A DNA stretch of 64,000 nucleotides from an uncultured Gammaproteobacteria bacterium (GCA_964345045.1 CAYFPM010000003.1:6038-70037), one strand, 5' to 3'; shown: positions 4,877 through 56,831, counted from the first letter of the stretch. Made by a program: numbers and translations. The notes: generated by a model not told the origin, from the letters alone.

Positions 4877-6259
4877 ATGAAACTAATTTATAGAACAAAA
4901 CAAATTATATTGGCAATTGGAGATTTGCTTAGTTTTGTTTTTGGTTTTTGGTTGGCTCTCTTAGTAAGAAATTTGGAAACTCCCGAATGGAGCCAAATAG
5001 AACTCCATATTCCCCTATTTAGTTTGCTGTTTTTACTCTGGATAATTTTTAACTACATCAATGGTCTTTATGATCTAGAGAGAAACACCGGAGACCGATC
5101 TTTTTACAAAAATTTTGCCGAAACCACCGGCCTGTCTCTTTTGCTTAGTATTATTTTCTTCTACTTACTCAATTCAGTTATTGCTCCCAAAACAATTTTG
5201 CTTTTGAATATCTTGTTTGGCTATGGACTTAGCTTGGTTTGGAGAATTTTTTATAAAAAAACTTTTGCCGGCAAAGCCTTACTTACCAAAGTTCTAATGG
5301 TTGGTCACAGCGAAGAAGTAGACTTTTTGCTAGATATTACCAAACGCAGACCAGAAAAAGGTTATGAAATTGTGGCTCTGGTTGACCCCGAAACTACAGC
5401 CAACAAAAAATCTGGTGTCCCTGTTTATCACAATTTGGAAGAAATGAAAAAAATCATTGCCAAATATGGAATCGATCTAGTTATCATTGTGCCACATATC
5501 CAAAAAAACAAGGCTAGTGAAAAACAGATTTATGAACTACTTTTTACAAAAGTTCAAATTAGTGATTTGCCAACTTTTTACGAAATTATCACCGGCCGTA
5601 TCCCTCCTTCTACTTTTTCCGAAGGTTGGTTTTTGCAACACTTAACAAAAAAAGAAAAACCCCTCTATGACAAAGTGAGAATTATTATTGACTACTTTGT
5701 AGCTACAATATTATCTATTTTTGTTTTGGCTATCTTGCCGGTTATTGCCCTGCTTATAAAAATAACTTCCAAAGGTCCGGTTTTTATAAAACAAAAAAGA
5801 GTAGGACAAAATGGTCGTGAATTTGTCCTATACAAATTTCGTTCTATGTATACCTTGTCTGCCGATGGCAGTGCCGAACTTGGCGAAGTTCAGTTTGCCA
5901 CGAGAGGTGACAAACGTATTACCCCGATTGGCCGATTTCTTCGCAAAGCTAGAATTGATGAATTGCCACAAGTTCTGAACTTGCTAAAAAGAGACGTTAC
6001 TTTGATTGGTCCTAGACCCGAGAGACCAGAAATTGTTCGGGAACTTGAAAAAAACATGTCTTATTATCCTTTGCGTCATTTGGTGCGTCCAGGTTTAACT
6101 GGCTGGGCACTTATAAACCAAGGTTATACAGACGATTATGACAAATCTTTGCAAAAATTGCAGTATGATCTTTATTATATAAAGAATAGATCTTTTGCCC
6201 TAGACATAGTTATTTCCTTGCGTACTCTTAATGTTTTGCTAAGGTTGATGGGGCAGTAA
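4877..6259 (+). CDS. polyprenyl-phosphate glycosyl-1-phosphate transferase (WbaP/EpsL-like initiating sugar transferase)
   Basis: N-terminal TM helices. C-terminal bacterial sugar-transferase signature KRDVTLIGPRPERPE and DELPQVLNLLK. Confidence 0.85.
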   Translation: MKLIYRTKQIILAIGDLLSFVFGFWLALLVRNLETPEWSQIELHIPLFSLLFLLWIIFNYINGLYDLERNTGDRSFYKNFAETTGLSLLLSIIFFYLLNSVIAPKTILLLNILFGYGLSLVWRIFYKKTFAGKALLTKVLMVGHSEEVDFLLDITKRRPEKGYEIVALVDPETTANKKSGVPVYHNLEEMKKIIAKYGIDLVIIVPHIQKNKASEKQIYELLFTKVQISDLPTFYEIITGRIPPSTFSEGWFLQHLTKKEKPLYDKVRIIIDYFVATILSIFVLAILPVIALLIKITSKGPVFIKQKRVGQNGREFVLYKFRSMYTLSADGSAELGEVQFATRGDKRITPIGRFLRKARIDELPQVLNLLKRDVTLIGPRPERPEIVRELEKNMSYYPLRHLVRPGLTGWALINQGYTDDYDKSLQKLQYDLYYIKNRSFALDIVISLRTLNVLLRLMGQ

Positions 6260-6293
6260 AATTTTAATGTCCAATTACAAATTTTAAATTTTT

Positions 6294-6322
6294 AAACTAC
6301 TGAGCTGACACTCAGTTTTTTG
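6294..6322. terminator. A-tract/hairpin/T-tract terminator (AAACTACTGAGctgacaCTCAGTTTTTTG)
   Basis: ACTGAG/CTCAGT stem followed by a T6 run, directly after the stop of the 4877..6259 gene. Confidence 0.5.
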
Positions 6323-6408
6323 TTCTATAGACAAAGTTTTGACTTAAATAATTCGACTATCAATGCTAATAATTTTGCTCAATTTAGCTAAATTTTGACC
6401 AAAATGTC

Positions 6409-6437
6409 TTGACAAAAGGCATTTTTTATGTTATACT
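6409..6437 (+). promoter_or_regulatory. sigma70-like promoter (TTGACA, 17 nt spacer, TATACT)
   Basis: Consensus -35 and near-consensus -10 with 17-nt spacing. It lies about 140 nt upstream of the GC-rich gene at 6580. Confidence 0.45.
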
Positions 6438-6579
6438 GCTTTGTTAGTTTCTGCTTTTTCTTAAGTAGAAAAACGATTTAAAAATATAATTTTTGTGTTT
6501 TTGGATCGTTCTTTCTATAGCCTACAACCTGGGGGTATCCCCCATTCAATCAACAGGGCTTTGCCCAAAGGAGCAAGAG

Positions 6580-7650
6580 ATGCGAAACTTCGCGCTCGTC
6601 ATCGCCATTCTGATCACGTGTGTCGCCACCATCAGTGGCTGCACCAAGAACAAGACCGAGGAGAAGCAGAAGTCGATCACCACTTCTGAGAGCTACTTCG
6701 GAGGTGACTGGCTTTCCGCAGTCCCCGACTGCGATCCCCTGAACGCAGCCATCAACCCCGATGCCATGGAGGTCGAGGACGGGATCGACAACAACTGCAA
6801 CGGCCTCATTGACACGGCCGAGTTGTCGGTCGACGTCCTCACCGACATCGAGAGACTCGGGGAGGTGCGCAAGCGCTTCTTCGACAGTGCCTTTGTCCGC
6901 AATGGCCCCCCGAAGGAGGAGGACGGCTGCTACAGCGGAAGAGCCTTCATTCGGGCCCTCTGGGCCATGGCCACCGACGAGAAGAGCGTCAAGAACGCCT
7001 CCGGCCTGGTCGGCGAGGCCTACAACGTCGAACTCAAGCTTGTGCAGAATGCCGATCTCTCTTCCAAGGACTGGGAGGAGATCTGGTACCAGACCGCGAA
7101 GCACATGCTCCCGGAACTGGTCGCCTATTGCGAGCCCACGCTCGACGTGGGCAACATGAGGTTCACGGCCACTTCGACGGGTAGCGGAGGCTTCCACGAA
7201 GTCTACTGGCAGATGAACGAGCTGGAGCTCGTTCACAAGCTCTACCCGGGCACGGAGAGCCCAGAGGACGCGGCCGAGACGATCGTACTCTTCGGGAACC
7301 TGCCGTACCCGATGAGCCCTGACAAATATCGCCACTACCACGAGCTTTCAAAGGTGGTCTTCCGCCACCTGGTCGAACTCAAGCAGAAAGGGAAGGACGA
7401 CTTGCCCTACCTCATGAAGTTCTTCCCGGTCGGAGATGGTTCGCCATCCGATTGGATCGGGCCGACACTCGAAGAGAAACTCTGCAAGGAAACGGACCGC
7501 ACCATCGAGGAGCGGGAAAAGTTCCTCGCCGTCGTGAGACGCCGTGTGAACAACAACGTCCTGTTTCAAAAGATCCGAGACAGGGACGACGGCAGTCCGA
7601 CATTCCCGCCGAACATGTCGGTAGAAGACTACTGCCGAGTGTGGAAGTAG
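6580..7650 (+). CDS. GC-rich predicted lipoprotein with a MopE-like Cys/Asp putative metal-binding motif
   Basis: RBS AAGGAG then ATG at 6580. Lipobox VATISGC. Motif DCDPLNAAINPDAMEVEDGIDNNCNGLID resembles the C-x-D-x-N-A-x-x-P-G-A-x-E-x-C-D-G-x-D-N-x-C-x-G repeat common in Myxococcota proteins. Strong GC and codon-usage contrast to flanks. Confidence 0.6.
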   Translation: MRNFALVIAILITCVATISGCTKNKTEEKQKSITTSESYFGGDWLSAVPDCDPLNAAINPDAMEVEDGIDNNCNGLIDTAELSVDVLTDIERLGEVRKRFFDSAFVRNGPPKEEDGCYSGRAFIRALWAMATDEKSVKNASGLVGEAYNVELKLVQNADLSSKDWEEIWYQTAKHMLPELVAYCEPTLDVGNMRFTATSTGSGGFHEVYWQMNELELVHKLYPGTESPEDAAETIVLFGNLPYPMSPDKYRHYHELSKVVFRHLVELKQKGKDDLPYLMKFFPVGDGSPSDWIGPTLEEKLCKETDRTIEEREKFLAVVRRRVNNNVLFQKIRDRDDGSPTFPPNMSVEDYCRVWK

Positions 7651-7798
7651 GTTCCCCACCATCTTTTCTGTGCCATAGGGTGCACAGATCGCAGAAGATG
7701 TAAAACATTCACAACCCAAACAAGGAGATCCCCATGTGCAACTGCGATGTGCCTGGGAACCAACTATTATTTTTACAAAGTTAAAAATAATTGAGGAC

Positions 7799-7829
7799 AA
7801 AAAAACTGAGTTAGTACTCAGTTTTTTTG
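7799..7829. terminator. A-tract/hairpin/T-tract terminator (AAAAAACTGAGTtagtACTCAGTTTTTTTG)
   Basis: Perfect 8-bp stem, 4-nt loop, T7 run; A-tract upstream makes it potentially bidirectional. Confidence 0.5.
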
Positions 7830-7841
7830 TTTAATTAATTC

Positions 7842-7958
7842 CTCCCCTATTAGGGGAGGCTAGCCCGCCTGCCTTGCTTCCCGATTTATCGGGATGCGGG
7901 CAGGGTGGGGTCAAATCGTCTACCAGCCCCCCTCTGTCTCCCCCTAATAGGGGGAGAA
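7842..7958. repeat. palindrome-bounded intergenic element (CTCCCCTATTAGGGGAG ... GC-rich hairpin ... TCTCCCCCTAATAGGGGGAGA)
   Basis: Two near-perfect palindromes in mutual inverted orientation enclose a structured GC-rich core (cccgat/atcggg and cctgcc/ggcagg pairings). The same boundary sequences recur at 41921 and 42342 around a DUF559 gene. Confidence 0.5.
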
Positions 7959-7979
7959 CTTTATTTCAATTTTTCGAAT

Positions 7980-10392: not shown

Positions 10393-10750
10393 AATATAAA
10401 TGCTTGAAATGCCAAAAAAGCTAGAGAGGCTTTTAAGGCTTTTATGGGGGATACTATAGCAATTTGGATGTTTATTTTCAAGGGTTTTTGATAAATAGTT
10501 CTTGGTTCTTAGTTCAAAGTTATTAGTTAAGAGTACAGCTAAAATAATGCTAATTAGAAATTGCAACGGTCTCTGCCTTCGCTAGATTCACTATTACATA
10601 TTGCCAACTGCCTATACCCCAAAAAAACACGAAGGCCGGGCTGCTTTTTGCAACTCGGCCGGGCAGATACTGCCTTTCTCAGCATCTGCGCGTTTACCCA
10701 CTCACCTATGTCTACATCCGTTTTCACTATTTGCCCCTCCCAGAGCATGT

Positions 10751-11419
10751 TTACTCGTTGTCGTCTCCACCCAAAACCTCTACAAGTGGCACATCGCGAA
10801 CAGTGTCGGCCACTTGTACATCTAGTATCTCCGGGACTCCCGGGTCGGTCTGCACATCTGCCTCAAATGGCGGATGCAGCTCCTCGAGCCGACGACCTGG
10901 GACTGTATCCTTGTTCGCAGTCATTCTCCTCTGGGTTCTTCGGCTGGCACTGGCTAGCGGCCCTGGGTGCCGCTGGTCTGGCTCGGTGGTGCGCCTGGCT
11001 TGCCTAATTAGGAATTGAGCCAATTCTTCGTCTATGTCTGGGTCAAACCCTAGGCCCTCTCTATGGGGGGCTGGCGGGGCGACCAAACCAGGTGGTGCTT
11101 TGGCTTCTTCCATGTCACTTAGGATCTTGCCTAGCTCTGGAGCCGGGACAATATCTACAGGAGTGACCTCGCGCAAGTAGGGCGGCAAGCTGCTAGACTC
11201 TCTGGGCTGAGCCGGCATAGCCAAACCTTTGGCTAACTCTTGGGGCGAACTTGCATTCGCCCTGCCGACCATAGCCAGCGAGGTAAGCGCTGCCAAGAGA
11301 GCAACAACAGCTGTACCAATCAGGCTTTGTCGGCGAGATAGTACGCCGAGGAACCCTAGGGAAAGTATGGTGGCCAAAGCCACCAGTGTGGGTAACACTA
11401 GGAAACGCAATCTTTTCAA
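10751..11419 (-). CDS. GC-rich membrane-anchored proline-rich protein (unknown function)
   Basis: TTG start preceded by AAGGGAAG. Two N-terminal TM helices, then a Pro/acidic low-complexity tail. GC-rich codon usage unlike flanks. Confidence 0.45.
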   Translation of the reverse strand: MKRLRFLVLPTLVALATILSLGFLGVLSRRQSLIGTAVVALLAALTSLAMVGRANASSPQELAKGLAMPAQPRESSSLPPYLREVTPVDIVPAPELGKILSDMEEAKAPPGLVAPPAPHREGLGFDPDIDEELAQFLIRQARRTTEPDQRHPGPLASASRRTQRRMTANKDTVPGRRLEELHPPFEADVQTDPGVPEILDVQVADTVRDVPLVEVLGGDDNE

Positions 11420-11652
11420 AACGCTTCCCTTCCTTTCTCCACCATTTCGGTGGCCTAGGTATTCTTTGGCAAAAATAGCTAGGAGACAGAAATGGTGTGA
11501 ATTGTTACCTATTTTCAGTATGGCTTTATTTTTTCTTTTTTGTCAAGAGCTTTGGGCCAAAATATTGACTTTTGGCTAATTTTAGTGTAGGTTTCAAATA
11601 ATCTAGTTTGAGTAAAAAAGCTCAAACAGAAAGCTCTTTTGAGAGGTAAAAA

Positions 11653-12885
11653 GTGAAACTTACCATCACCAACCCCGACCACGCCTCCTACATCACCAGC
11701 CTCGACAACCAAAGATTCGCCGATGTACTCGTGGGAGAAGCCCCGAACATTCACTTCAACGATGGCAGGGCGGACAACCCGGTCATGCAGCTGTTGTGGA
11801 CAGATCCCCAGACTATCGTAGATATCTGCACCCTGGCCCTGCCCAAGGCAGAGCAAATGGAGACGTCCACCCACGTGAAACAAGAACGCCAGGCCGCCAT
11901 CTATGTATTGATGGTCGATGCATATCGGCGACTGTGGCAAGCAGAAACCTCTACTTCTAGGAAGATGTCTCTAGATGCGCAAGTCGCAGATATCTTCGAA
12001 AAAGCTCAGAGCCTGGTCGAGAAACTCGAGGAACACGATGTTGACAGAGCCAATAGGCTCACCGGATCTATGAATCACAACCGTATCCAGATGCTGGTTT
12101 CTACCGGCAAATACCTAGATGCTACCAAGCTCCACGACGAAAACGCTCGCCTCGCAAGAGAAGTGAATGATTTCCCCACCTTCGACCGAGAAGAACTTCG
12201 TGCCGCCGTACACGCCGCCAATCACCAACTGTGTTTTGGTGATCGCAGCGATATGGTCGGAGACCCAGACAGGTTGATAGATTGGGACTTGGCCGTACGC
12301 CAGGCTCAAGAGACAGCTCTGCATGTTGCAAGTCAATATGCAGACCAAGAAGAACACATCGCCATGGCCATCGAGGCACTTCTCTACGCTATTCGAATGG
12401 ACTGGTTGTCTAGGAGTGATCGCGACAACACGGCCTATATCCAACAAATCTCCGCCATGATGAGCGGGAACGAAGGCTTGCAAAAAGCCTTTGGCTGGAT
12501 GCACACGATCCTGGGGGCAGCCCAACTCATTCATTCCTTCAAGAATTGGGGGGAGGAGGTAATCGTTGAAGCCGAAAAAGCCATCGCCAGAATGAAGGAA
12601 ATCGGGGACAACGAAGATATCCCCATGCCCTACCGCACCGAAGCCATGCTCTGTATGGCGCAGCTGTCCAGCGCTCTAGGCCATTTCATCAGCCAAAACA
12701 GGTTCGGTTCCCATGGAGGCGCAACCATCCCCCAGTACCCGGACAGAATGCGGGCAGCCTACGAAGAAGCTGCCTCTATCCTACAGAAGCTCCAGAACCT
12801 GCAAGGTAGCCTGGCCTGGAAGGACGTAGCCACTATCATGGACAAGAGGCACCTCCCCAACGTACTCAAGTATTGCGCGGGATAA
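11653..12885 (+). CDS. GC-rich hypothetical alpha-helical protein (410 aa, no recognisable domain)
   Basis: GTG start preceded by GAGAGG. Long uninterrupted ORF in a GC-rich island, divergent from 10751..11419 across an AT-rich 230-bp spacer. Confidence 0.5.
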   Translation: MKLTITNPDHASYITSLDNQRFADVLVGEAPNIHFNDGRADNPVMQLLWTDPQTIVDICTLALPKAEQMETSTHVKQERQAAIYVLMVDAYRRLWQAETSTSRKMSLDAQVADIFEKAQSLVEKLEEHDVDRANRLTGSMNHNRIQMLVSTGKYLDATKLHDENARLAREVNDFPTFDREELRAAVHAANHQLCFGDRSDMVGDPDRLIDWDLAVRQAQETALHVASQYADQEEHIAMAIEALLYAIRMDWLSRSDRDNTAYIQQISAMMSGNEGLQKAFGWMHTILGAAQLIHSFKNWGEEVIVEAEKAIARMKEIGDNEDIPMPYRTEAMLCMAQLSSALGHFISQNRFGSHGGATIPQYPDRMRAAYEEAASILQKLQNLQGSLAWKDVATIMDKRHLPNVLKYCAG

Positions 12886-27762: not shown

Positions 27763-27791
27763 TTGACAATAAAGTTTTTTTATGATATTTT
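27763..27791 (+). promoter_or_regulatory. candidate sigma70-like promoter (TTGACA, 17 nt spacer, TATTTT)
   Basis: Consensus -35 but weak -10, about 100 nt upstream of the GC-rich micro-gene. Confidence 0.3.
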
Positions 27792-27892
27792 TTGCAGTCG
27801 TATAGTCTCTTGCTTGGGTGTGTCATAAGAGAACGGGGAAAGCAGATCGATAACCCCAACCAACTCCCCCCAAGGGAGAAAGGAACTCCTCT

Positions 27893-28111
27893 ATGGCACG
27901 TCCCCTGCACTACGACAAACACGGCAATCCCGACTTCGACTGGGACGATTGGGATCCCATTGCGGAAAGAAAACCGCAACCTCCAATCGTAATGTCGCCA
28001 GAAGAGGCTGCAAGGTATGGAGAACTCCAACTGCGCGCCTGGGAAAGTGACGGTGAAGTCCAAATGTCGGCTCTCGCCGACGAAGAGGGCGAGGAACCCG
28101 AGTCCGAGTAG
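27893..28111 (+). CDS. GC-rich small acidic protein (72 aa, unknown)
   Basis: RBS GGGAGAAAGG then ATG. Strongly acidic DFDWDDWD ... EEGEEPESE composition. GC-rich island only about 300 bp wide. Confidence 0.4.
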   Translation: MARPLHYDKHGNPDFDWDDWDPIAERKPQPPIVMSPEEAARYGELQLRAWESDGEVQMSALADEEGEEPESE

Positions 28112-28170
28112 TAGTCTGGGAGGCCTGGCTTTGTGCATTGCACAGAGCCAGGCCACCACTTACATCAATC

Positions 28171-28199
28171 AAAAAACTGAGTAGACCTCAGTTTTTTTA
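28171..28199. terminator. A-tract/hairpin/T-tract terminator (AAAAAACTGAGtagacCTCAGTTTTTTTAT)
   Basis: Same design as the terminators at 6294, 7799 and 12994. Confidence 0.5.
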
Positions 28200-41907: not shown

Positions 41908-41920
41908 AAGCAAGTTGTTC

Positions 41921-41937
41921 CTCCCCTATTAGGGGAG
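41921..41937. repeat. CTCCCCTATTAGGGGAG palindrome (left boundary of DUF559 cassette)
   Basis: Identical to the palindrome at 7842..7859. Confidence 0.5.
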
Positions 41938-41951
41938 GTTAGGAGGGGTCC

Positions 41952-42338
41952 TTATATAGATAAATTTTTTATATAAAAGATTATATCATTAATAACATTA
42001 TCAAGCTCGTATTTAATTTGTTCATTCCTGTATCTCAAAACAAAATATCCGTTTTGTTGTAAATATTTTTGTCTAATTATATCTTTCTTTTTATTTTCTT
42101 TTTCTGCATGTATGTACCCATCTATTTCTATTATCAATTTCAACTCATGAGAATAAAAATCTACAATATAATAATCAATGTTAAACTGTCTTCTAAATTT
42201 AACCCCCAGTTGTTTTGCTTTTAATTTATACCACAATATTTTTTCCGCTTCAGTTTGACAAGTTCTTAGACACCTTCTTCTTTTTTTAAAAGATGCTTTA
42301 TTCTGGTAACGACCGATTGATTTCATATTGACCCCCAC
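41952..42338 (-). CDS. DUF559 (Vsr/Mrr-like restriction-endonuclease-fold) protein
   Basis: TEAEKILWYKLK ... FRRQFNIDYYIVDFY ... LIIEIDG ... RQKYLQQNGYFVLRY matches the DUF559 layout. Confidence 0.6.
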   Translation of the reverse strand: MGVNMKSIGRYQNKASFKKRRRCLRTCQTEAEKILWYKLKAKQLGVKFRRQFNIDYYIVDFYSHELKLIIEIDGYIHAEKENKKKDIIRQKYLQQNGYFVLRYRNEQIKYELDNVINDIIFYIKNLSI

Positions 42339-42341
42339 TTA

Positions 42342-42360
42342 CTCCCCCTGATAGGGGGAG
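42342..42360. repeat. CTCCCCCTGATAGGGGGAG palindrome (right boundary of DUF559 cassette)
   Basis: Near-identical to TCTCCCCCTAATAGGGGGAGA at 7938..7958, including the preceding CCCCCxCTxxxCT context. Confidence 0.5.
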
Positions 42361-42362
42361 AA

Positions 42363-43523
42363 TTAACTTTTACTCTTATAATTCTCTATAATCTGTTTAA
42401 TTGTTACATCCCAACTAAACGTAGACATAACTTTGTTGTAACTAGCTTCACCAAATTCTTTTCTTTTTTCTTCATTTGAGAGCAACTCATTAACTTTGTC
42501 AGCCAAATTTTGTTTCCTTTCTTCACTTGTATCCATTGGGGCATCATAATCAGAATTTTCCCAATCAACTAGTTTCACCAGATAGCCCGTTTTGTTATCT
42601 TCTACCATTTCCAAATAACCACCAACTCTACTGGCAACAAGTGCTTTTTTCATAGCCATAGCCTCTAGACAAGCCAAACTGGTTGATTCGGCAGTAGAAG
42701 GAAAAACCACAACTTTGGCCAAAGATAAATAACCTGGAACCAGTTTGTTTTCTACTTTTCCAACAAAATCAAAATGTTTTCTTACTCCCAATTCTTCTGC
42801 TCTTTGTTTGAGATATTCTTCTAATTGACCATAACCAACCAAGACAAATTTTACATCTTTGTTTTTTTCTACAATTTTTGGGCTAGACTCTACCAAAAAT
42901 TGTATTCCATTTTTAGGAACCAATCTTCTTACAGTCAAAACAACTTTGTTGTCTTTGTATTTTTCTTCCAAATCAGTTGGTATTTCGGTCTTTTGAAAAG
43001 TTTCTAGATCAACGGCATTTGGAATATACTTAATCTTTTTTTCACTAGTATATTTTTTGGCAATGTCTACAAAATCTTGGCAAGAAGCAATTATATAATC
43101 GGAAACTTTTAGCGAAAACCATCTGTAAAAACTATGTACCAATCCATAAACAAAATTATTTCCAGGTAGATCAAGAATACCTCTTCCCTGCAAAGTTATG
43201 GCAAATGGTTTTTTCTTGAAAATATTATAAATCCCGGCGTAAGCAGCAAACTTGTGCGAATATACTGCATGGATTATATCGACTTCGTCCAAAAACTTTT
43301 TAAGTTCTTTATAAAATTTAATCTTGCCTTTTAGCCCTTTGCCAAAATCTACTCTGGTGGTATTGAAATCATCCTGGTAATCTTTGGTGTTTTTTTCGTC
43401 TAGTGTAAACACACTTACTTCATAACCACTTTTTTGTAGATACTTGGCCAAATTGTAGGCATAAACTTCTGCTCCCCCAATTCTTGGCAAATACCAATCA
43501 ATTACAATTCCTATTTTTTTCAT
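42363..43523 (-). CDS. family-4 (GT-B fold) glycosyltransferase
   Basis: Glycos_transf_1 layout; a C-terminal domain with an EAMAMKKALVAS-type motif. Confidence 0.8.
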   Translation of the reverse strand: MKKIGIVIDWYLPRIGGAEVYAYNLAKYLQKSGYEVSVFTLDEKNTKDYQDDFNTTRVDFGKGLKGKIKFYKELKKFLDEVDIIHAVYSHKFAAYAGIYNIFKKKPFAITLQGRGILDLPGNNFVYGLVHSFYRWFSLKVSDYIIASCQDFVDIAKKYTSEKKIKYIPNAVDLETFQKTEIPTDLEEKYKDNKVVLTVRRLVPKNGIQFLVESSPKIVEKNKDVKFVLVGYGQLEEYLKQRAEELGVRKHFDFVGKVENKLVPGYLSLAKVVVFPSTAESTSLACLEAMAMKKALVASRVGGYLEMVEDNKTGYLVKLVDWENSDYDAPMDTSEERKQNLADKVNELLSNEEKRKEFGEASYNKVMSTFSWDVTIKQIIENYKSKS

Positions 43524-50041: not shown

Positions 50042-50101
50042 AATTATTCTTTAAGCCCTAGTATTCTACTTAGCCAGGCCAAGGCTGTCAAGAAATTTTT
50101 A

Positions 50102-50119
50102 CTATTTTTTAGGCAAAAA
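50102..50119. repeat. 18-bp direct repeat CTATTTTTTAGGCAAAAA (left copy) bracketing the 50.1-55.2 kb island
   Basis: Exact 18/18 match with 55226..55243. Each copy is itself part of an imperfect palindrome (CTATTTTTTaggcAAAAAATAG). Confidence 0.5.
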
Positions 50120-50270
50120 ATAGCTTTTCAATTCTTCAAAACCCCACAACCTATGTTATGGATTTTTGAAGGTGTTCAAGTCATTCTGTTTTGGAGAACA
50201 ACTTGAACAAAGAAAAGAACGTTTTTACAAGCTAGTTTCATCTGGATGATGAAGGTGGCTTGGTTTTGGT

Positions 50271-53200
50271 TTATGGCACAGCTTGCGGAGTTTCTCCCGG
50301 GCAGCAGAGAGCGCCATTGTCGGTAATATAGGTGCCCTGGGCGCAGCCATAGACCAGTGGCGCGCTTGGCGTACCTAGGTAGCGCAGTTCATTGCCCGAC
50401 CAGATTTCTACTCCGGTCACCGAGTTGGCATCCGGGGCATTGTACGAGCCACCAGTCCCCGGCCATTGATCGTAGACATGGGGAGGATTGGAGACGTAGG
50501 AGCACGTACTACAAATCTGATCGCTAGGGATACCCGAGACGTCGTTGCCATCGACCACACACGAAGCCAACCAGTATCTCCCAGTTGTTGGAATAGGCGT
50601 CGGTCCTCGGTAATGCAAGAACTCGGTCCAAGTGCACATATGCGAACCATTTCCGCAAGAGACATGGGCACTGCACTGGTCGAAGTTGGTACTCCAGCTA
50701 GATGTAGCACAGCCAACCATCATGCTGTCTGGGTAGACATCTTCGGTGTTGTAACCCGAGGCGCAAGTGGCCGGAGCGAGTGGAGCTGCTGCTCCAGAAT
50801 CTGGTTCGACTCCGGTGTCCGGAGTGCCGGTGTCAGGGGCTTCTCCAGAGTCTACGCTTCCACTATCTACTGTTGCTATTCCAGAATCTAGACTCCCGCT
50901 GTCGGTGATTCCCCCATCGCTGCTTGTGAAGATTTGAGGAGTGGCTCCGTAGCAACACAGGGCTCCGTTGTAGTCAACGTAGGTGCCTTGGGCACTGCCG
51001 TAGACAGCCGAAGTAGTTAGTGTTCCCAGGTGACGCGGGTCTCCATTGGGTCCCCAGATTTCTACGCCAGTGTAAGAGTTGGTGTTGGGGGCATTGAAGG
51101 CCACCCCACCTTCTTGCCACTGATCGTGGACATGAGGGGGATTGGAAACTTGGGCGCAAGAACTACAGATTTGGTCAGTCGGAGTGCCGGGGTTGTCGTC
51201 CCCATCAGTGACGCACGAGGCTAGCCAAAAGCGTTCTTGGGTGTAGACTTGGCTGCCGCCGCTGTAGTGATTGAACTCGCTCCAAGTGCACATATGGGAA
51301 TTGTCTCCACAAGAGACAGGGGCGTCGCACTGGTTGTAACCATTGCTCCAATTCAAGGTAGAGCAACCGATCATCATGCTTGTTCCAGGAATTGCTTCCG
51401 TGGGATGACCGGGAGCGCAAGTGGCTACTGCGGGGATACCGCTATCTGCTACTCCGGCGTCTACTTGAACGTTGGCTTGGCTGGCAGCTGGGAGAGGCGT
51501 AGTGCCTGGGCAACACATGGCGCCGTTTTCTGCAAGCGATGTGGGTTGAACCGAAGCATAGGCCAAAGGACCGCTCGACGAACCCAAACGACGACGTCCT
51601 GAACCTGGCCAGAGTTCTACACCGGCTACGGCATGAGGATCTGCATGCCCAAAGCTGGTACCGTCTTCGTGCCATTGATACTCAAAGTACATGGTCGAAG
51701 CGATGTTTTGGCAGTTGTAGCTACAAATCTCGTTGGTGGGCAAAGTCACCAGGGCTTCGGGGCTGTCGTGTACACAAGAGGCTAGCCAATACCGACCAAT
51801 GGCCGGAATGGGAGTGTTTCCACGGTAGTAGACATACTCGTCCCCAGTGCACATATGTGAGTTGCCTCCGCAAAAGCCGTTGGCTCGGCACTGGTTGCGT
51901 CCTTCTGTCTTTCCACCACAACCGACCATACCGGGAATAGCGTAGTCCGGGTTAGTGGTTTTCTCGTACCCTGCAGCACAACTGGCGTAGGTGATGCTGG
52001 GGTCGAGTGTGGGCGCGGTGCAGGTGCTGGTTTCTGTTGGCGAGACGCGTGGATCTTGGGTGCAGGTCTCGGTATTGACCAGTTCGCAAACGCGGTTGTG
52101 GGTATTGTCTACTCCACACTCTAGTGGGTAGGCAGAACAAACCCAGTCGTTGTCTGCTACGGTACACGACCGCATCGGGGTACAAGTGCTGGTCTCGGTA
52201 GGAGCCAGTCCCATGGTGTCGACACAAAGAACGTCGAGCTTTTGGCAGTCTCGACTTTGGGTGCCCAGGTAGTTGCAGCGGTCGTACTCGCCACAGCTCC
52301 AGTCATCTGCCGTACAGGGATCTGTGCTTTCTATGGCCGTAAGGCTTACGGCTCCGAGTTCCCTGACTTGGTTGGTGGCGGTATGGAGGCTTCGAGCCAG
52401 GATAGTGTAGTTTCCGGGGAGTGGATGCTCTAGGCTGACTCGGTGGTGGAGTTGTCCTTGGCCACCTCCGGTGGTGGGCACGGTGTAGGGGCCGGTGAGG
52501 AACGACAGGTCGTGTCGTTTGGCTCCGTTGTAGTAGACTTCGTAGTAGGTGTAGATGTCTCCGGGGGAGACGTTATGAATTTGAAAGTACAGGTAGTATT
52601 CCGGCCAGCCGGCGTAGATGGTGGTTGGCGGGATACATTCGTACTGGTTATTTATTTGGTTGTAGGTGGCATTTCCTTCGCAGAGGATGGCGGTGCCAGC
52701 CTGGCCAAAGCCAGTGCTCGAGGGATTGAGGTTGGCATCTGATCCGCTGGTTTGCAGGTGAAACAGGCTGGTGGAATCTAGCCCGTAGATGCCGGGTAGT
52801 GTAGACGTGGCTCCGAGGTAGGAACTAGTACACAGATTAGTTCCGGTGGAACTATTCTCTAGACAGTTCGTACCAGAGGGTGGATTGTTAGAACCGCTGG
52901 TAGCCACTTCGCAAACTCCCACTCCGCTGGGGAGGCCGTATCTTCCGCCTTGGGCAGGATTGCAGACTAGGCCGCTGGCACACTCCGTATCGCTCTCGCA
53001 GTGGCCCTCGCCAGCCTGGCACTGGCAGCCGCTGGAGCAATAGTAGTAATCTCCGTTTAGGTAGCCAGTGAGGCAGCGGGTGCCATCCGTGGCTCCGGGA
53101 ACGGATGCTAGTCTAAGTGCTCCTCCCTGGGGGTTGTATGCGAGATTGGACAAACCCGTATCTACCGTATAGGAAGGAATACCTCCAAGGGGGATTCTTT

Positions 53201-54284
53201 TTATTCGGTAATCGAACTCGAAACTGGGTTGGCTGGGCCAAGAAATTCCGCCTGTTTGGACGAACACTTCGAATCTCCATTTGGTCCAAACTTGTCCGGG
53301 TTGGCTATTGGCCAAAGCGTTATGGATTGTGATATTGGGCATCACATGTTTATAGATCACCAGAGTTCCATTGGAAACGCTGCTCCAGGCTGGATCCCAG
53401 TTAACGTTGATCCAGTTGGTCTCCTCGACCCATTCTCCTCGGCTTTCTTCTCCCCCGTTATCTGTTTCTCTATGTCCTACAACTCTAATACGTACCAGCT
53501 GGTCTCTCACACGCAGTTGGATTGCGGTGTAAGGGCTTTCGGTTTCGTAGAAGTCATAAAACGGAACCAGGGGATCGGAATCGTTCCCATCGTTTGACAA
53601 ACCTGCTCCAAATCTATTTGACAAGGGCAGGCAGCTTACGGGATTCCCAGAACTGTCTTGAGTGTAATGAACGCACGTCGTCGGGTTCGGGAGGATTGTG
53701 TAAGAAGCCGTTGGATTATACAAAGTATTGTTTGAAAGATATTGATTACCAGCAACCAAGTTGGCATATCCAGATATAGGCTCAGGTTTTACGCCTACAC
53801 CATTACAATACAATGCAAAATGCAAATGCATACCAGGACTCAGCGAACATGCAGATCCAGACACATTTCCAGTATTCCCAACAACTCCAATTTGCTGTCC
53901 CTGAAAAACATACTGACCATCTTGCACAAGCACACTATCAAGATGAGCATATCGAGTTTTGCACTCACCATGATTAATCAGAACAGCATTACCATAACCA
54001 CCGCTGTTTGGGGTGGGAACAGCGACAACTCCCTCTGCTGCAGCAAGAATGGGTTTCCCAATCGAATTGCAACCCGACTCAATAAAATCTACAGCATAAC
54101 GATCGTCAGAGGTGTCCCCACCATAATCGATATGAGAAGCAATATTATATCCTCTAGTAAGAATCCAACTCTCACCACTCGGGAACGGCAATCTCATATC
54201 CGGTACAGAGGCAGAGGCTTTCACAACAAAAAGCATCTGAATCTGAATAGCCAAGAGGATGGTTGAGATAACAAACCTATACAA
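50271..54284 (-). CDS. GC-rich giant secreted protein: N-terminal M23 (LytM-type) metallopeptidase + Cys-rich central region + three tandem about 170-aa Cys-rich repeats
   Basis: TTG start with AGGTAG upstream. Signal peptide ending VKASA. M23 motifs HIDYGGD (HxxxD) and GMHLHFALY (HxH). Three repeats each contain C..SHMCT..E(F/Y)..Y ... RYWLASCV ... GALCC. Strong GC and codon-usage contrast to flanks. Confidence 0.6.
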   Translation of the reverse strand: MYRFVISTILLAIQIQMLFVVKASASVPDMRLPFPSGESWILTRGYNIASHIDYGGDTSDDRYAVDFIESGCNSIGKPILAAAEGVVAVPTPNSGGYGNAVLINHGECKTRYAHLDSVLVQDGQYVFQGQQIGVVGNTGNVSGSACSLSPGMHLHFALYCNGVGVKPEPISGYANLVAGNQYLSNNTLYNPTASYTILPNPTTCVHYTQDSSGNPVSCLPLSNRFGAGLSNDGNDSDPLVPFYDFYETESPYTAIQLRVRDQLVRIRVVGHRETDNGGEESRGEWVEETNWINVNWDPAWSSVSNGTLVIYKHVMPNITIHNALANSQPGQVWTKWRFEVFVQTGGISWPSQPSFEFDYRIKRIPLGGIPSYTVDTGLSNLAYNPQGGALRLASVPGATDGTRCLTGYLNGDYYYCSSGCQCQAGEGHCESDTECASGLVCNPAQGGRYGLPSGVGVCEVATSGSNNPPSGTNCLENSSTGTNLCTSSYLGATSTLPGIYGLDSTSLFHLQTSGSDANLNPSSTGFGQAGTAILCEGNATYNQINNQYECIPPTTIYAGWPEYYLYFQIHNVSPGDIYTYYEVYYNGAKRHDLSFLTGPYTVPTTGGGQGQLHHRVSLEHPLPGNYTILARSLHTATNQVRELGAVSLTAIESTDPCTADDWSCGEYDRCNYLGTQSRDCQKLDVLCVDTMGLAPTETSTCTPMRSCTVADNDWVCSAYPLECGVDNTHNRVCELVNTETCTQDPRVSPTETSTCTAPTLDPSITYASCAAGYEKTTNPDYAIPGMVGCGGKTEGRNQCRANGFCGGNSHMCTGDEYVYYRGNTPIPAIGRYWLASCVHDSPEALVTLPTNEICSYNCQNIASTMYFEYQWHEDGTSFGHADPHAVAGVELWPGSGRRRLGSSSGPLAYASVQPTSLAENGAMCCPGTTPLPAASQANVQVDAGVADSGIPAVATCAPGHPTEAIPGTSMMIGCSTLNWSNGYNQCDAPVSCGDNSHMCTWSEFNHYSGGSQVYTQERFWLASCVTDGDDNPGTPTDQICSSCAQVSNPPHVHDQWQEGGVAFNAPNTNSYTGVEIWGPNGDPRHLGTLTTSAVYGSAQGTYVDYNGALCCYGATPQIFTSSDGGITDSGSLDSGIATVDSGSVDSGEAPDTGTPDTGVEPDSGAAAPLAPATCASGYNTEDVYPDSMMVGCATSSWSTNFDQCSAHVSCGNGSHMCTWTEFLHYRGPTPIPTTGRYWLASCVVDGNDVSGIPSDQICSTCSYVSNPPHVYDQWPGTGGSYNAPDANSVTGVEIWSGNELRYLGTPSAPLVYGCAQGTYITDNGALCCPGETPQAVP

Positions 54285-54379
54285 AACATCTACCTGCGCG
54301 GAATAGAAAACAAATGTCTTCTAACTACACACAGCGCTTGTGTGTAGTACAAAAAACATTTGAATTCCAAATAATTTAA

Positions 54380-55033
54380 TTATTTTATTGATGAAAAAAT
54401 ATTATTAGCGATATTTTTAATATCGTCAATTTTATCTAAACTATCCCCTGAAAAAACAAGTACAAAATTTCTTAGACCACTGTATTTTAAATAACCCGAA
54501 GAACCATAGATTACATTATTATCTTCCTTAATATAACCTCCAGAACCTAAAATCCTAAAAAACTTTTTACCTTTGATTTCTAAAAATTCGAATTCATCTA
54601 TGTCAATATGTTGCGAGAAAAATTTTTTTATATCATCTTCATTTTCATATAAGGGATTAAAATATATTGGCAAACCTTCCCCAATCCCTTCAGAAAAATC
54701 ATCCGAAAAAAAAGCTAAGTTCAATCTATGTTTATTATTTATATTATTAAAACTTATAAGTAATCTTTTCCCTTTATCAAACCCTTTTAACTCTTTCTGA
54801 ACACCCATTAATTCATACCCCCCCGGATACCGAAACCTAATCCCCAACTCTTCACTTTCAAAAGTCTTCCAATCACTAGTATCCACTTCATCACTACCAC
54901 CACTAACAATACTCTCTCCATTCAGCACTTTCTCACCCATCCCAAACAAACCATCTTCATAAAGATAAATACCAAAACCAAATACTAAGACAAGAATAAT
55001 TACGACTAAACCAATAACTTTAGATTTTTTCAT
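54380..55033 (-). CDS. membrane-anchored hypothetical protein (217 aa)
   Basis: N-terminal TM/signal anchor KVIGLVVIILVLVFGFGIYLY; no recognised domain. Confidence 0.4.
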   Translation of the reverse strand: MKKSKVIGLVVIILVLVFGFGIYLYEDGLFGMGEKVLNGESIVSGGSDEVDTSDWKTFESEELGIRFRYPGGYELMGVQKELKGFDKGKRLLISFNNINNKHRLNLAFFSDDFSEGIGEGLPIYFNPLYENEDDIKKFFSQHIDIDEFEFLEIKGKKFFRILGSGGYIKEDNNVIYGSSGYLKYSGLRNFVLVFSGDSLDKIDDIKNIANNIFSSIK

Positions 55034-55225
55034 ATAAATAGATTATACAAATAATTTAGAGTTCAATTATACCACGAAGCTACAAAGCTAGGGGAATAAA
55101 AAAATCTCCTTGGGCAGGAGGGTAACAATCTTCTCTATTTTCCCCTCCCTGTTATTTAGGGAGAAATTATCATGGGGTGAAAAAATTGTCAAGTTAACTA
55201 GAAACAAAATCCCCCAAAACCTCCC

Positions 55226-55243
55226 TATTTTTTAGGCAAAAAC
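55226..55243. repeat. 18-bp direct repeat CTATTTTTTAGGCAAAAA (right copy)
   Basis: Exact match with 50102..50119. Confidence 0.5.
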
Positions 55244-55257
55244 ATAGATATTTGCAA

Positions 55258-55286
55258 TTGACAATCACCCCTTATTTCTATATAAT
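55258..55286 (+). promoter_or_regulatory. sigma70-like promoter (TTGACA, 17 nt spacer, TATAAT)
   Basis: Perfect -35 and -10 hexamers with 17-nt spacing, about 50 nt upstream of the flippase gene. Confidence 0.45.
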
Positions 55287-55334: not shown

Positions 55335-56831
55335 GTGACTGTAAGCAAATACCAAAAAGCCTACGACAAAAACAAAGAAGGCGTTTTGAACAAATCGATC
55401 CGAGCCGGCAAATGGCTAACCATAGATTTTTTTGTCCGCAAACTACTTAACTTTGCGCCTTTTTTTATTTTGGCCAGACTCCTTACCCCGGCCGACTTTG
55501 GAGCCTTGGCTATTATTTTGCTGGTTCCCAGATTTTTGCAATCCACCAGCGAGACCGGCCTGGCCACGGCAGCTATCCAAAAAGGAGGCGACCCTATAAA
55601 ATATCTCAATCCCATTTGGACTCTTAACATCCTCCGTAGCCTTATCATTGCCATTGTCGTATTTTTGGCTGGCCCTTATATTGCCAATTTTTACAATGCT
55701 CAATCCGTAGTCTGGCCAATTAGGTTTGGTGGAATTTTTATTGTTATCTACCAATTATCCAATATTGGTGAGATTTGGTTTACCAAAGAATTAGATTTCA
55801 AAAAAGTTTTTATAAGAAATACCATCAAAACAACTGTTTATGCAGTAGTAAGCGTTGGAGTAGCTCTTATTTATCCAAACTATTGGGCTTTGGTTATCGC
55901 TACCCTGGCTCTACACATTTCCGAAACCATCTCTACTTATTTTTTGCATCCGTATAGACCAAAACTATCGTTTGAATTTGGAAAACTAAAAGAACTAACC
56001 GGTTATAGCAAATGGATAGTCGGCCAGATCTGGCTAGAACAACTATACAATTTTGCCGAAAGCTCTATAGTAGCGCGCACCACCAATACCTCGGCTCTGG
56101 GTTTGCATAGCAAAGCTCGCAACCTGGCTTCTATAGCTCCCGGATCCGTAGCCTCGGTAATTACCATGATTAGTTTACCGGCTTATGCCAAGATCAAAGA
56201 GTCCAAAGAAAAAATCGTAGAAGGACTCAAAAAAAGTTTGGACTTACTTTTTGTATCTATTATTCCGGTAATTGTAGTTATGATTGTAGGTGGAGGCAAG
56301 ATTGTAGAGGTCTTACTTGGGGACCAATGGATCCCGATGACCAATCCTCTACGAATTTTCTTGGTCTTTTTTACTTTGTCTGCCCTAGTAGACATTGCTC
56401 ACAAACTTTTCAATGGCATTGGTTTTCCAGACAAAAAGGTAAAACTAGATACAGTCAAAATTGTAGTAACAGTTTTGCTATTACTTATCCTAACTCCAAA
56501 ATACGGAATCGTAGGAGCGGCCAGCGCCATTACTATTGGACTACTACCCTCTTTTGCACTTAGTGTTTGGTATTTGATAAAAATTACCGGTATTAGTTTG
56601 TGGAGTATTTCGGTAAGAATATTGTCTCCCTTGGCATTGTCTTTATTAGTTTTGTCTCCGGCTATTATTTGGAAAGATACTGTTTTAACTTATTCAAATC
56701 TGCTTTTACTTTTGCTAATTGCTCTAGGAGGAATAGTTTATGCAGGTATAATCTGGTTGGTAGGAATCAAATTCCAAAAAGGACCTTATAACACTATCAA
56801 ACTTATTCTTAAGACTTTACCGAAGACCTAG
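55335..56831 (+). CDS. Wzx-like oligosaccharide flippase (polysaccharide biosynthesis protein family)
   Basis: 498 aa with about 12-14 hydrophobic helices; N-terminal KWLTIDFFVRKLLNFAPFFILARLL typical of the PST family. Confidence 0.8.
   Translation: MTVSKYQKAYDKNKEGVLNKSIRAGKWLTIDFFVRKLLNFAPFFILARLLTPADFGALAIILLVPRFLQSTSETGLATAAIQKGGDPIKYLNPIWTLNILRSLIIAIVVFLAGPYIANFYNAQSVVWPIRFGGIFIVIYQLSNIGEIWFTKELDFKKVFIRNTIKTTVYAVVSVGVALIYPNYWALVIATLALHISETISTYFLHPYRPKLSFEFGKLKELTGYSKWIVGQIWLEQLYNFAESSIVARTTNTSALGLHSKARNLASIAPGSVASVITMISLPAYAKIKESKEKIVEGLKKSLDLLFVSIIPVIVVMIVGGGKIVEVLLGDQWIPMTNPLRIFLVFFTLSALVDIAHKLFNGIGFPDKKVKLDTVKIVVTVLLLLILTPKYGIVGAASAITIGLLPSFALSVWYLIKITGISLWSISVRILSPLALSLLVLSPAIIWKDTVLTYSNLLLLLLIALGGIVYAGIIWLVGIKFQKGPYNTIKLILKTLPKT

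Follow-up and report, generated by a model that had tools for sequence, protein, structure and literature searches.

What is the 5.1-kb segment at 50102–55243 of the 64,000-nucleotide stretch of DNA analysed here (hereafter the window)? It holds a GC-rich gene for a protein of 1337 residues, the giant protein, and a low-GC gene for a protein of 217 residues, and an exact 18-bp direct repeat bounds the two. A first reading, made from the sequence alone (the sequence-only reading), had taken the segment for a mobile island at an att-like site. We find that view not supported. The account we favour, to which we give slightly better than an even chance, is that the segment is a resident two-gene envelope module: an M23 enzyme equipped with foreign, lectin-like targeting modules, with the 18-mer as an element upstream of promoters.

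A secreted M23 peptidase

What does the giant gene encode? Both open reading frames (ORFs) lie where the sequence-only reading had put them, and the larger product divides into the parts listed here. P0002 is an M23 relative from a different metagenome, L134 is a locus with another relative, GC3 denotes the GC content of third codon positions, and CTLD stands for C-type lectin-like domain.

50271–54284, minus strand: 1337-residue secreted multidomain protein with a TTG start (ORF and Pfam; confirmed in independent assemblies)
54207–54284, minus strand: signal peptide, residues 1–26 (MYRFVISTILLAIQIQMLFVVKASA, followed by SV), read from the sequence and aligning with the N-terminal signal peptide of P0002
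53715–54197, minus strand: M23 metallopeptidase domain, residues ~30–190 (Pfam, NCBIfam and PDB matches), with a host-like GC3 of 0.31
53247–53714, minus strand: extension, residues ~191–346, shared with relatives of ~290 residues (tblastn to L134); the rise in GC3 starts here
51993–53246, minus strand: lineage-specific middle region, residues ~347–764, Cys-rich and beta-rich, with two Cys repeats of ~54 residues ending PTETSTCT
51495–51992, minus strand: CTLD-like repeat 1, residues 765–930 (motifs, repeat alignment, profile search)
50937–51431, minus strand: CTLD-like repeat 2, residues 952–1116 (motifs, repeat alignment, profile search)
50274–50777, minus strand: CTLD-like repeat 3, residues 1170–1337, the unit that was modelled
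54380–55033, minus strand: 217-residue protein with an N-terminal membrane anchor, 29% GC, a recurring neighbour of the M23 subfamily

The protein deposited at NCBI (P0001, 1308 residues) begins at M30 and so omits the signal peptide. We prefer the TTG start 29 codons upstream of M30 because the signal peptide that it adds aligns with that of P0002.

The sequence-only reading had called the product a secreted LytM/M23 peptidase, and the signal peptide alignment, the conserved catalytic residues and the family match all bear this out. Pfam Peptidase_M23 (PF01551) matches residues 74–167 at E = 5e-21, with 75.1 bits against a cutoff of 28.7; NCBIfam also gives an M23 match, and 23 solved M23 structures, ShyA, TagE, LasA and lysostaphin among them, match at E ≤ 1e-3. 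D66 (in AVDF), H114 (in RYAHL) and H153 and H155 (in HLHF) are conserved in the aligned members of the subfamily. The zinc-ligand Asp, the second His of HxH as a further ligand and the two catalytic His are all in place. The domain is predicted to be an active zinc peptidoglycan endopeptidase.

Where do its relatives stand? The closest (45–64% identity) are proteins of ~280–400 residues, and the more distant (37–40% identity and below) carry the names Falkowbacteria, Paceibacterota, Minisyncoccia, Jorgensenbacteria and Patescibacteria. These names fit a low-GC host genome like those of the Patescibacteria (the candidate phyla radiation, CPR), and the low-GC source genome is probably of that kind. 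P0127, the closest relative by local identity, is on a contig of 65% GC. A tblastn search aligned residues 19–346 with the L134 relative at 41% identity. Since homology extends to residue ~346, the ancestral unit comprised the M23 domain and one further domain of ~100 residues. A scan of metagenome loci with the M23 N-terminus gave one weak relative. Beyond the shared part the relatives diverge, the C-terminal modules being CTLD here, CBM_4_9-like in P0002 and PPC in P0127. The middle of the giant protein (residues ~199–764) has no Pfam or PDB sequence match.

Three divergent lectin-like repeats

What are the three C-terminal repeats? Each is ~165 residues long and holds 10–11 Cys; they are 45–59% identical to one another in protein and 57–64% in DNA, and SHMCT, WLASCV and A[LM]CC occur three times each in the giant protein. 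The sequence-only reading could assign these tandem Cys-rich repeats to no known family. We reached the same result with curated collections: none of the three has a Pfam or PDB sequence match at E ≤ 10 or any match in NCBIfam, and the Pfam models Lectin_C, Xlink, DUF1566, FGE-sulfatase and Intimin_C in particular give none.

An exhaustive profile search of 1.84 billion representative sequences recovered 105 relatives of the repeat, 14 of them below 1e-10. Eight Cys are invariant in the family, and no consistent Pfam match emerged among 69 of its members. Nearly all of the 105 are proteins of 180–290 residues, with a lipoprotein-type signal, an acidic low-complexity linker and a single C-terminal copy of the domain. 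Their names are uninformative, and 15 further matches in protein databases are hypothetical proteins. Among the relatives with DNA context, two lie on contigs of 70–74% GC, next to Che-type and Ser/Thr kinases.

A different arrangement is found in P0086 (787 residues, L128:8001–10364). Like the giant protein, it belongs to a low-GC genome (its contig, L128, is 159 kb long with 41% GC) and carries more than one copy of the domain, here two in an SHVCT variant. It differs in that these copies follow a pilin-type N-terminus rather than a peptidase, and are ~25% identical to the repeats of the giant protein. The P0086 gene stands within a complete type IV pilus cluster (PilB, PilT, PilC, prepilin peptidase, minor pilins and PilM).

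Modelled by AlphaFold2 with 66 relatives in the alignment, repeat 3 reached a pLDDT (predicted local distance difference test) of 88.6 and a pTM (predicted template-modelling score) of 0.86; a model built from the three repeats alone reached a pLDDT of 35 and was not used. The core fold of the former is structurally similar to solved CTLDs. The Foldseek similarity to CTLDs is not significant. The calcium- and sugar-binding motifs EPN, QPD and WND are in none of the three repeats. On the strength of the model, we take the repeat to be a very divergent, disulfide-rich CTLD core with ~60 extra residues. It would thus join a superfamily that includes Link modules, the CTLDs of natural killer (NK) receptors, collectins, invasin D5 and the C-terminal domain of Legionella Lcl, from which it differs in its Cys content, its extra residues, its lack of EPN, QPD and WND, and the absence of a match to any Pfam CTLD family. 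With about 100 clusters and no Pfam model, the unit represents a new domain family that could be curated.

Compositionally foreign sequence in a probably resident gene

How did an enzyme of this kind come by such an extension? The giant gene has 53% GC and a GC3 of 0.53, while its neighbours have GC3 values of 0.22–0.37. The departure is confined to part of the gene: a change-point at codon 194 separates a GC3 of 0.31 from one of 0.57. Lys makes up 0.6% of residues 201–1337, against 7.6–11% in neighbouring proteins. P0002 shows the same switch, from 0.32 to 0.58 at codon 161, and its C-terminal region is unrelated.

Independent contigs from PRJEB17505 cover 64000–52294 and 52418–39241 at 99.9–100% identity, with an overlap of 125 bp. 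These positions, 52294–52418, are also where the ends of contigs L001 and L005, both of one assembly, overlap, and they adjoin the following feature.

52419–52446, minus strand: 28-bp haplotype patch with 9 differing positions, mostly third codon positions, at which the assembly graph forks

L001 differs from the window at nine positions, all of them in this patch, which encodes residues 613–622, outside the CTLDs; most of the differences are synonymous. Such clustering indicates a second haplotype in the population, which explains the fork in the assembly.

Is the giant gene alone in its composition? An ORF at 6493–7650 on the plus strand, with its likely ATG at 6580, has a GC content of 0.58 and a GC3 of 0.80 in AT-rich surroundings. 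Its product is lipoprotein-like (the signal ends ISGC) and has a Cu-binding_MopE Cys motif. A promoter-like TTGACA-17-TATACT at 6409 precedes it, with the palindrome AATTTAGCTAAATT upstream, and an independent Logan contig (L136) matches 5864–7933 at 100%, confirming the ORF. Other GC-rich patches (GC 0.52–0.59) lie at ~10600–11450, where the frame is uncertain, at 11653–12885, an ORF with a GC3 of 0.64 and no Pfam match, and, smaller, at 27800–28200; AT-rich intergenic DNA parts them. No flanking repeats above chance were found around 6580–7650, ~10600–11450 or 11653–12885. As several of these patches coincide with ORFs, GC-rich secreted genes appear to recur in the source genome. We infer that they were acquired from higher-GC bacteria and that their non-coding flanks were lost.

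The 217-residue neighbour and related loci

Does the small gene belong with the peptidase gene? In L130, from a different metagenome, a membrane-anchored protein of 259 residues is encoded directly upstream of P0002 and is 31% identical to the 217-residue protein (E = 3e-12). P0002 itself has 1089 residues and shares 44% identity with the giant protein over the signal peptide and M23 domain. In L132 an M23 relative of 283 residues lies between two small paralogous proteins, one of them related to the 259-residue protein of L130. With a homologue beside one M23 gene and a relative of that homologue beside another, the partnership proposed by the sequence-only reading is plausible. The 217-residue protein may regulate, inhibit or anchor the giant enzyme. 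It has no match to PsbP_2, and its L130 homologue matches that family below threshold (21.3 bits against a cutoff of 27, E = 3e-4).

The related loci have further features of their own. L130 has adjacent sugar-nucleotide genes, and in L134 the gene next to the M23 relative encodes a GT2 homologue. Positions 1–141 of L130, which lie upstream of the small partner gene, hold the 3' end of another GC-rich gene, whose last 46 residues match residues 414–459 of P0002 (L130:1263–4532) at 44 of 46 positions; giant genes of the M23 type therefore appear to be tandemly paralogous there. The M23 gene of P0122, in L134, is GC-rich (GC3 0.53) in a locus of 38% GC. About 6 kb from it, at L134:976–1344, is a bAvd / 23S_rRNA_IVP gene, which encodes an accessory protein of diversity-generating retroelements (DGRs).

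The 18-mer pair and two outward-facing promoters

If the segment is resident, what is the repeat at its ends? The 18-mer, CTATTTTTTAGGCAAAAA, occurs exactly at 50102–50119 and 55225–55242, both intergenic. The sequence-only reading had the exact pair right, and its second copy (55226) and segment end (55243) one position too far. It had also seen no third copy, and a search of the whole window allowing 2 mismatches agrees (0.04 expected). Among 2049 random pairs of 450-bp low-GC segments, 11 shared at least 16 exact bases and none shared at least 18. As no control pair reaches that length, the repeat is real and beyond chance.

A scan of one genome per species (185,579 species, 596 Gb) gave, among the matches listed, more than 120 single, scattered occurrences in unrelated taxa, the source genome not being among the listed matches; by our estimate this number is of the order that chance predicts for an AT-rich 18-mer in so much DNA. 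Does similarity run past the 18-mer? To the left of the copies an anchored test found no extended similarity, and in an unanchored local alignment the similarity beyond the 18-mer was not significant (score 50, with shuffles up to 72).

A near-palindrome, CTATTTTTT-AGGC-AAAAAATAG, has the 18-mer as its core, and each copy stands a short distance upstream of a sigma-70-like promoter that faces away from the segment.

50102–50123: copy 1 of the 18-mer within a 9-4-9 palindrome that is perfect (CTATTTTTTAGGCAAAAAATAG), with the -35 box of the minus-strand promoter 10 nt downstream
50063–50091, minus strand: sigma-70-like promoter TTGACA-17-TAGAAT (11/12), facing a gene for a 266-residue protein and downstream sugar-nucleotide genes
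55225–55247: copy 2 of the 18-mer in an imperfect palindrome, CTATTTTTTAGGCAAAAACATAG, which has one extra C, with the -35 box of the plus-strand promoter 15 nt downstream
55258–55286, plus strand: perfect sigma-70-like promoter TTGACA-17-TATAAT (12/12), facing the gene of a Wzx-type flippase (55335–56831)

These promoters, at 50091 on the minus strand and 55258 on the plus strand, rank among the four best promoter-like sites of all intergenic DNA in the window. With the start site set 7 nt past the -10 box, the palindromes are centred at -56.5 in the former and -57 in the latter. Another promoter-like site, at 27763, also has a related sequence, TTTTAGGAAAAA, on its upstream side, and looser versions of the core motif are in modest excess in the window (68 against 47 ± 6). 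From position and sequence, the palindromic element would be a shared UP-like or regulator-binding element of two outward-facing promoters; possibly it is the relic of a duplicated promoter segment. As RNA the palindromes would form hairpins of -3 to -7 kcal/mol (copy 1, -4.8 to -6.7), too weak for a terminator, and we rejected that role.

Are long shared motifs peculiar to this segment? An exact 21-mer with a GC-stem hairpin, TTCCTCCCCTATTAGGGGAGG, is common to the intergenic positions 7839–7859 and 41918–41938, where it bounds nothing. Since it joins two unrelated regions, long exact intergenic motifs are not a peculiarity of 50102–55243. Close to the 21-mer copies is a second repeat, of 46 nt and 76% identical (7928–7973 and 42332–42377), and a hairpin resembling that of the 21-mer, CTCCCT...AGGGAG, lies at 55142–55160, upstream of the 217-residue gene. 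These three may be repetitive extragenic palindromic (REP)-like elements or terminators.

Mechanism and target

How might such a module work? The giant protein would be exported by way of its Sec signal peptide, and its M23 domain would cleave peptidoglycan cross-links. An ancestral enzyme of ~350 residues would have gained ~1000 residues of compositionally foreign sequence (GC3 0.57), ending in the three CTLD-like domains; these could bind a surface glycan or protein and so hold the peptidase against a cell wall. The 217-residue protein would be its companion, membrane-anchored and extracytoplasmic, as a partner of this M23 subfamily. Such an arrangement, akin to the effector with a partner suggested by the sequence-only reading, is plausible.

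Whose wall would be cut? Most likely it is that of another cell, a host or prey; the cell's own envelope is the less likely target. We lean towards a non-self target because binding modules have been exchanged among relatives, a pilus protein bears the same domain, and CPR type IV pili are linked to the binding of hosts. In cultivated CPR bacteria type IV pili are reported to attach the cells to hosts (PMC11623550), and secreted hydrolases have been proposed as attackers of host walls (PMC8080830, PMC11393006). A bolder proposal, which we think unlikely, is that the Cys-rich unit is a disulfide-locked CTLD family used by CPR bacteria to recognise host surfaces, borne either on pili or on an M23 'recognise-and-cut' device. 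The GC-rich extension and ORFs would then have been captured from high-GC bacteria, possibly of the host lineage, and the 3' end of the M23 gene, marked by the same GC3 switch in P0002, would be a recurrent site at which foreign binding modules are captured.

What is new here? The plan of an M23 enzyme joined to targeting domains is already known, and it is the family of CTLD-like domains that is uncatalogued. Lysostaphin and ALE-1 (with SH3b), zoocin A and LasA likewise have a signal peptide, an M23 domain with the Asp, catalytic His and HxH kept, and one or more non-catalytic targeting modules. In the giant protein three CTLD-like domains and ~400 residues of unassigned Cys-rich sequence take the place of SH3b, the first zinc-ligand His would lie outside HxxxD, with an invariant His that in the subfamily stands 8–14 residues before the Asp (14 here), and the whole is 4–5 times larger, its extension being foreign in composition to the genome. 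The adhesive fibre tips of Bdellovibrio (C-terminal domain of Bd2740, PDB 8oks) offer another comparison. Here there is neither a trimeric fibre nor an S74 chaperone domain, the lectin-like domains are fused straight to the enzyme, and the organism is not known to be predatory. Predatory DD-endopeptidases can have a self-protection partner, as in the case of Bd3460 (work cited in PMC8080830); in that system the partner is an ankyrin protein, while here it would be membrane-anchored and possibly PsbP-like.

How do ultra-small CPR bacteria (Patescibacteria) recognise and breach their host cells? In published CPR genomes, M23 peptidases and large surface proteins are named as candidates, but the mechanism is not detailed (PMC8080830, PMC11393006); the present locus supplies a concrete candidate molecule. 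In the giant gene and in that of P0002, two independent genes, a GC-rich extension follows a host-like catalytic domain, a pattern that also bears on how reduced genomes acquire surface-interaction modules.

Alternative explanations

Several observations weigh against the account of a resident module with a promoter-upstream 18-mer and an active peptidase. To the right of both 18-mer copies ~28 nt are marginally alike (anchored test, p ~ 0.02), and an identity of 18 in 18 exceeds what a regulator site needs. The core TTTTAGG(N)AAAA shows no significant excess in the window (3 occurrences against 1 expected, a number reached in 8 of 100 shuffles), and the promoters are arranged as they would also be had an insertion duplicated its target on entering a divergent promoter region. 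As to the small gene, the only direct match of the 217-residue protein is the L130 neighbour, and neither L133 nor L134 has a homologue of it beside the M23 gene. In the peptidase, the residue aligned with the lysostaphin His, the canonical one of HxxxD, is R62, at a position that varies among subfamily members. H51, an invariant His found 14 residues before D66 (the distance is 8 in shorter relatives), may stand in for the first zinc-ligand His, a substitution to which its conservation points. LasA-type M23A enzymes have a long His–Asp spacing that resembles that of H51 and D66.

Could the segment nevertheless be an integrated genomic island? It would have entered a divergent promoter region, site-specifically or in the Campbell manner, leaving the 18-bp repeats as attL and attR or as a target duplication. 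Like integrase-mediated islands with att repeats, it has an exact direct repeat, unique in the window and absent from the 2049 control pairs, around a strongly GC-atypical gene; the marginal likeness to the right of both copies, and the minus-strand promoter left of copy 1 with the plus-strand promoter right of copy 2, as if a divergent region had been split, are also to be expected of one. Unlike such islands, it has no recombinase and no tRNA target. Pfam searches of both of its ORFs, their neighbours and 30 further ORFs of the window found no integrase, transposase or reverse transcriptase (the sequence-only reading, too, had noted that no integrase is present), the precomputed annotations of contigs L001 and L005 list no recombinase, and ARAGORN finds no tRNA or transfer-messenger RNA in the window. 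Its compositional boundary does not coincide with the repeats: the 217-residue gene and the M23 domain are host-like and the jump comes at codon 194, inside a gene. The pairing of a small gene with an M23 gene recurs in other low-GC loci and lineages, the repeats coincide with promoter-upstream positions, three other GC-rich ORFs of the window have no flanking repeats above chance, and the 21-mer joins two distant regions without bounding anything. The att-like island of the sequence-only reading thus gives way to a resident two-gene module, and we regard an island as improbable. An assembly artefact, with reads of some high-GC organism built into a contig of low GC, might be suspected from the sharp GC contrast and from contigs that break inside the giant gene. 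We give it practically no weight: both compositional junctions and both 18-mer copies are present in independent assemblies, which excludes a chimera, the ORF runs unbroken across the switch in GC, and the second GC-rich ORF is likewise confirmed together with its AT-rich flanks.

Two further explanations accept a resident gene and differ over what the protein does. Cell-wall-binding domains retain Gram-positive autolysins, and the same protein could be a housekeeping autolysin that acts on its own wall, tethered by its CTLDs to the surface glycan that the surrounding cluster produces. If the lectin domains do bind the cell's own glycan, this would be a more ordinary case of autolysin anchoring. 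The gene is embedded in a 64-kb region of glycan biosynthesis, related M23 genes have a GT2 homologue (L134) or sugar-nucleotide genes (L130) nearby, and versions of the enzyme of ~300 residues are widespread in sources with CPR names, consistent with a core function. Against this stand C-terminal modules that are wholly different among relatives (CTLD, CBM_4_9-like, PPC), a giant gene that is polymorphic in the population, and the presence of the same CTLD family on the type-IV-pilin-like P0086, type IV pili of cultivated CPR bacteria being reported to attach to hosts (PMC11623550); none of these is decisive. We consider an autolysin a real possibility, well below an even chance. The other explanation is a DGR target, in which the CTLD repeats would be variable regions whose hypervariation breaks assemblies inside the gene. 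DGR variable proteins are common in CPR genomes, and those known (Mtd and TvpA, of the CLec fold) resemble the giant protein in using a CTLD scaffold for ligand binding. That fold is the usual scaffold of DGRs (PMC11661182), all four contigs that enter the giant gene from the 217-residue side end within it, and L134 has its bAvd gene not far from the M23 relative. Yet the 64-kb window holds no template repeat for any part of the giant gene, none of the scanned ORFs encodes a reverse transcriptase, and the sole clustered variation lies outside the CTLDs, at mostly synonymous third positions, and is not adenine-directed. We therefore rejected a DGR target for this window, and hold it to be very improbable.

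Other features of the window

What surrounds the module? By Pfam on the scanned ORFs, the window is one long region of surface-glycan biosynthesis, with NeuB, a CMP-sugar transferase, DegT aminotransferases, GT2, GT4 and PMT_2 glycosyltransferases, Wzx and a carbamoyltransferase. No part of the window, the leader of the 217-residue gene included, matches an Rfam family. That leader (55100–55170, minus strand) holds two hairpins, one of them terminator-like (CTCCTGCCCAAGGAG followed by a T-run, 55120–55106), an arrangement that suggests an attenuator. At the other end of the module, one more structure was found.

50173–50209, minus strand: stem-loop just 3' of the stop codon of the giant gene (-17 kcal/mol), without a T-run

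It is probably the 3' end of the transcript of the giant gene, and would serve as its terminator hairpin. In the same glycan region, at 2288–4261 on the minus strand, is a gene for another large hydrolase that is secreted, a subtilase (Peptidase_S8) with C-terminal FG-GAP repeats and a native GC3 of 0.27.

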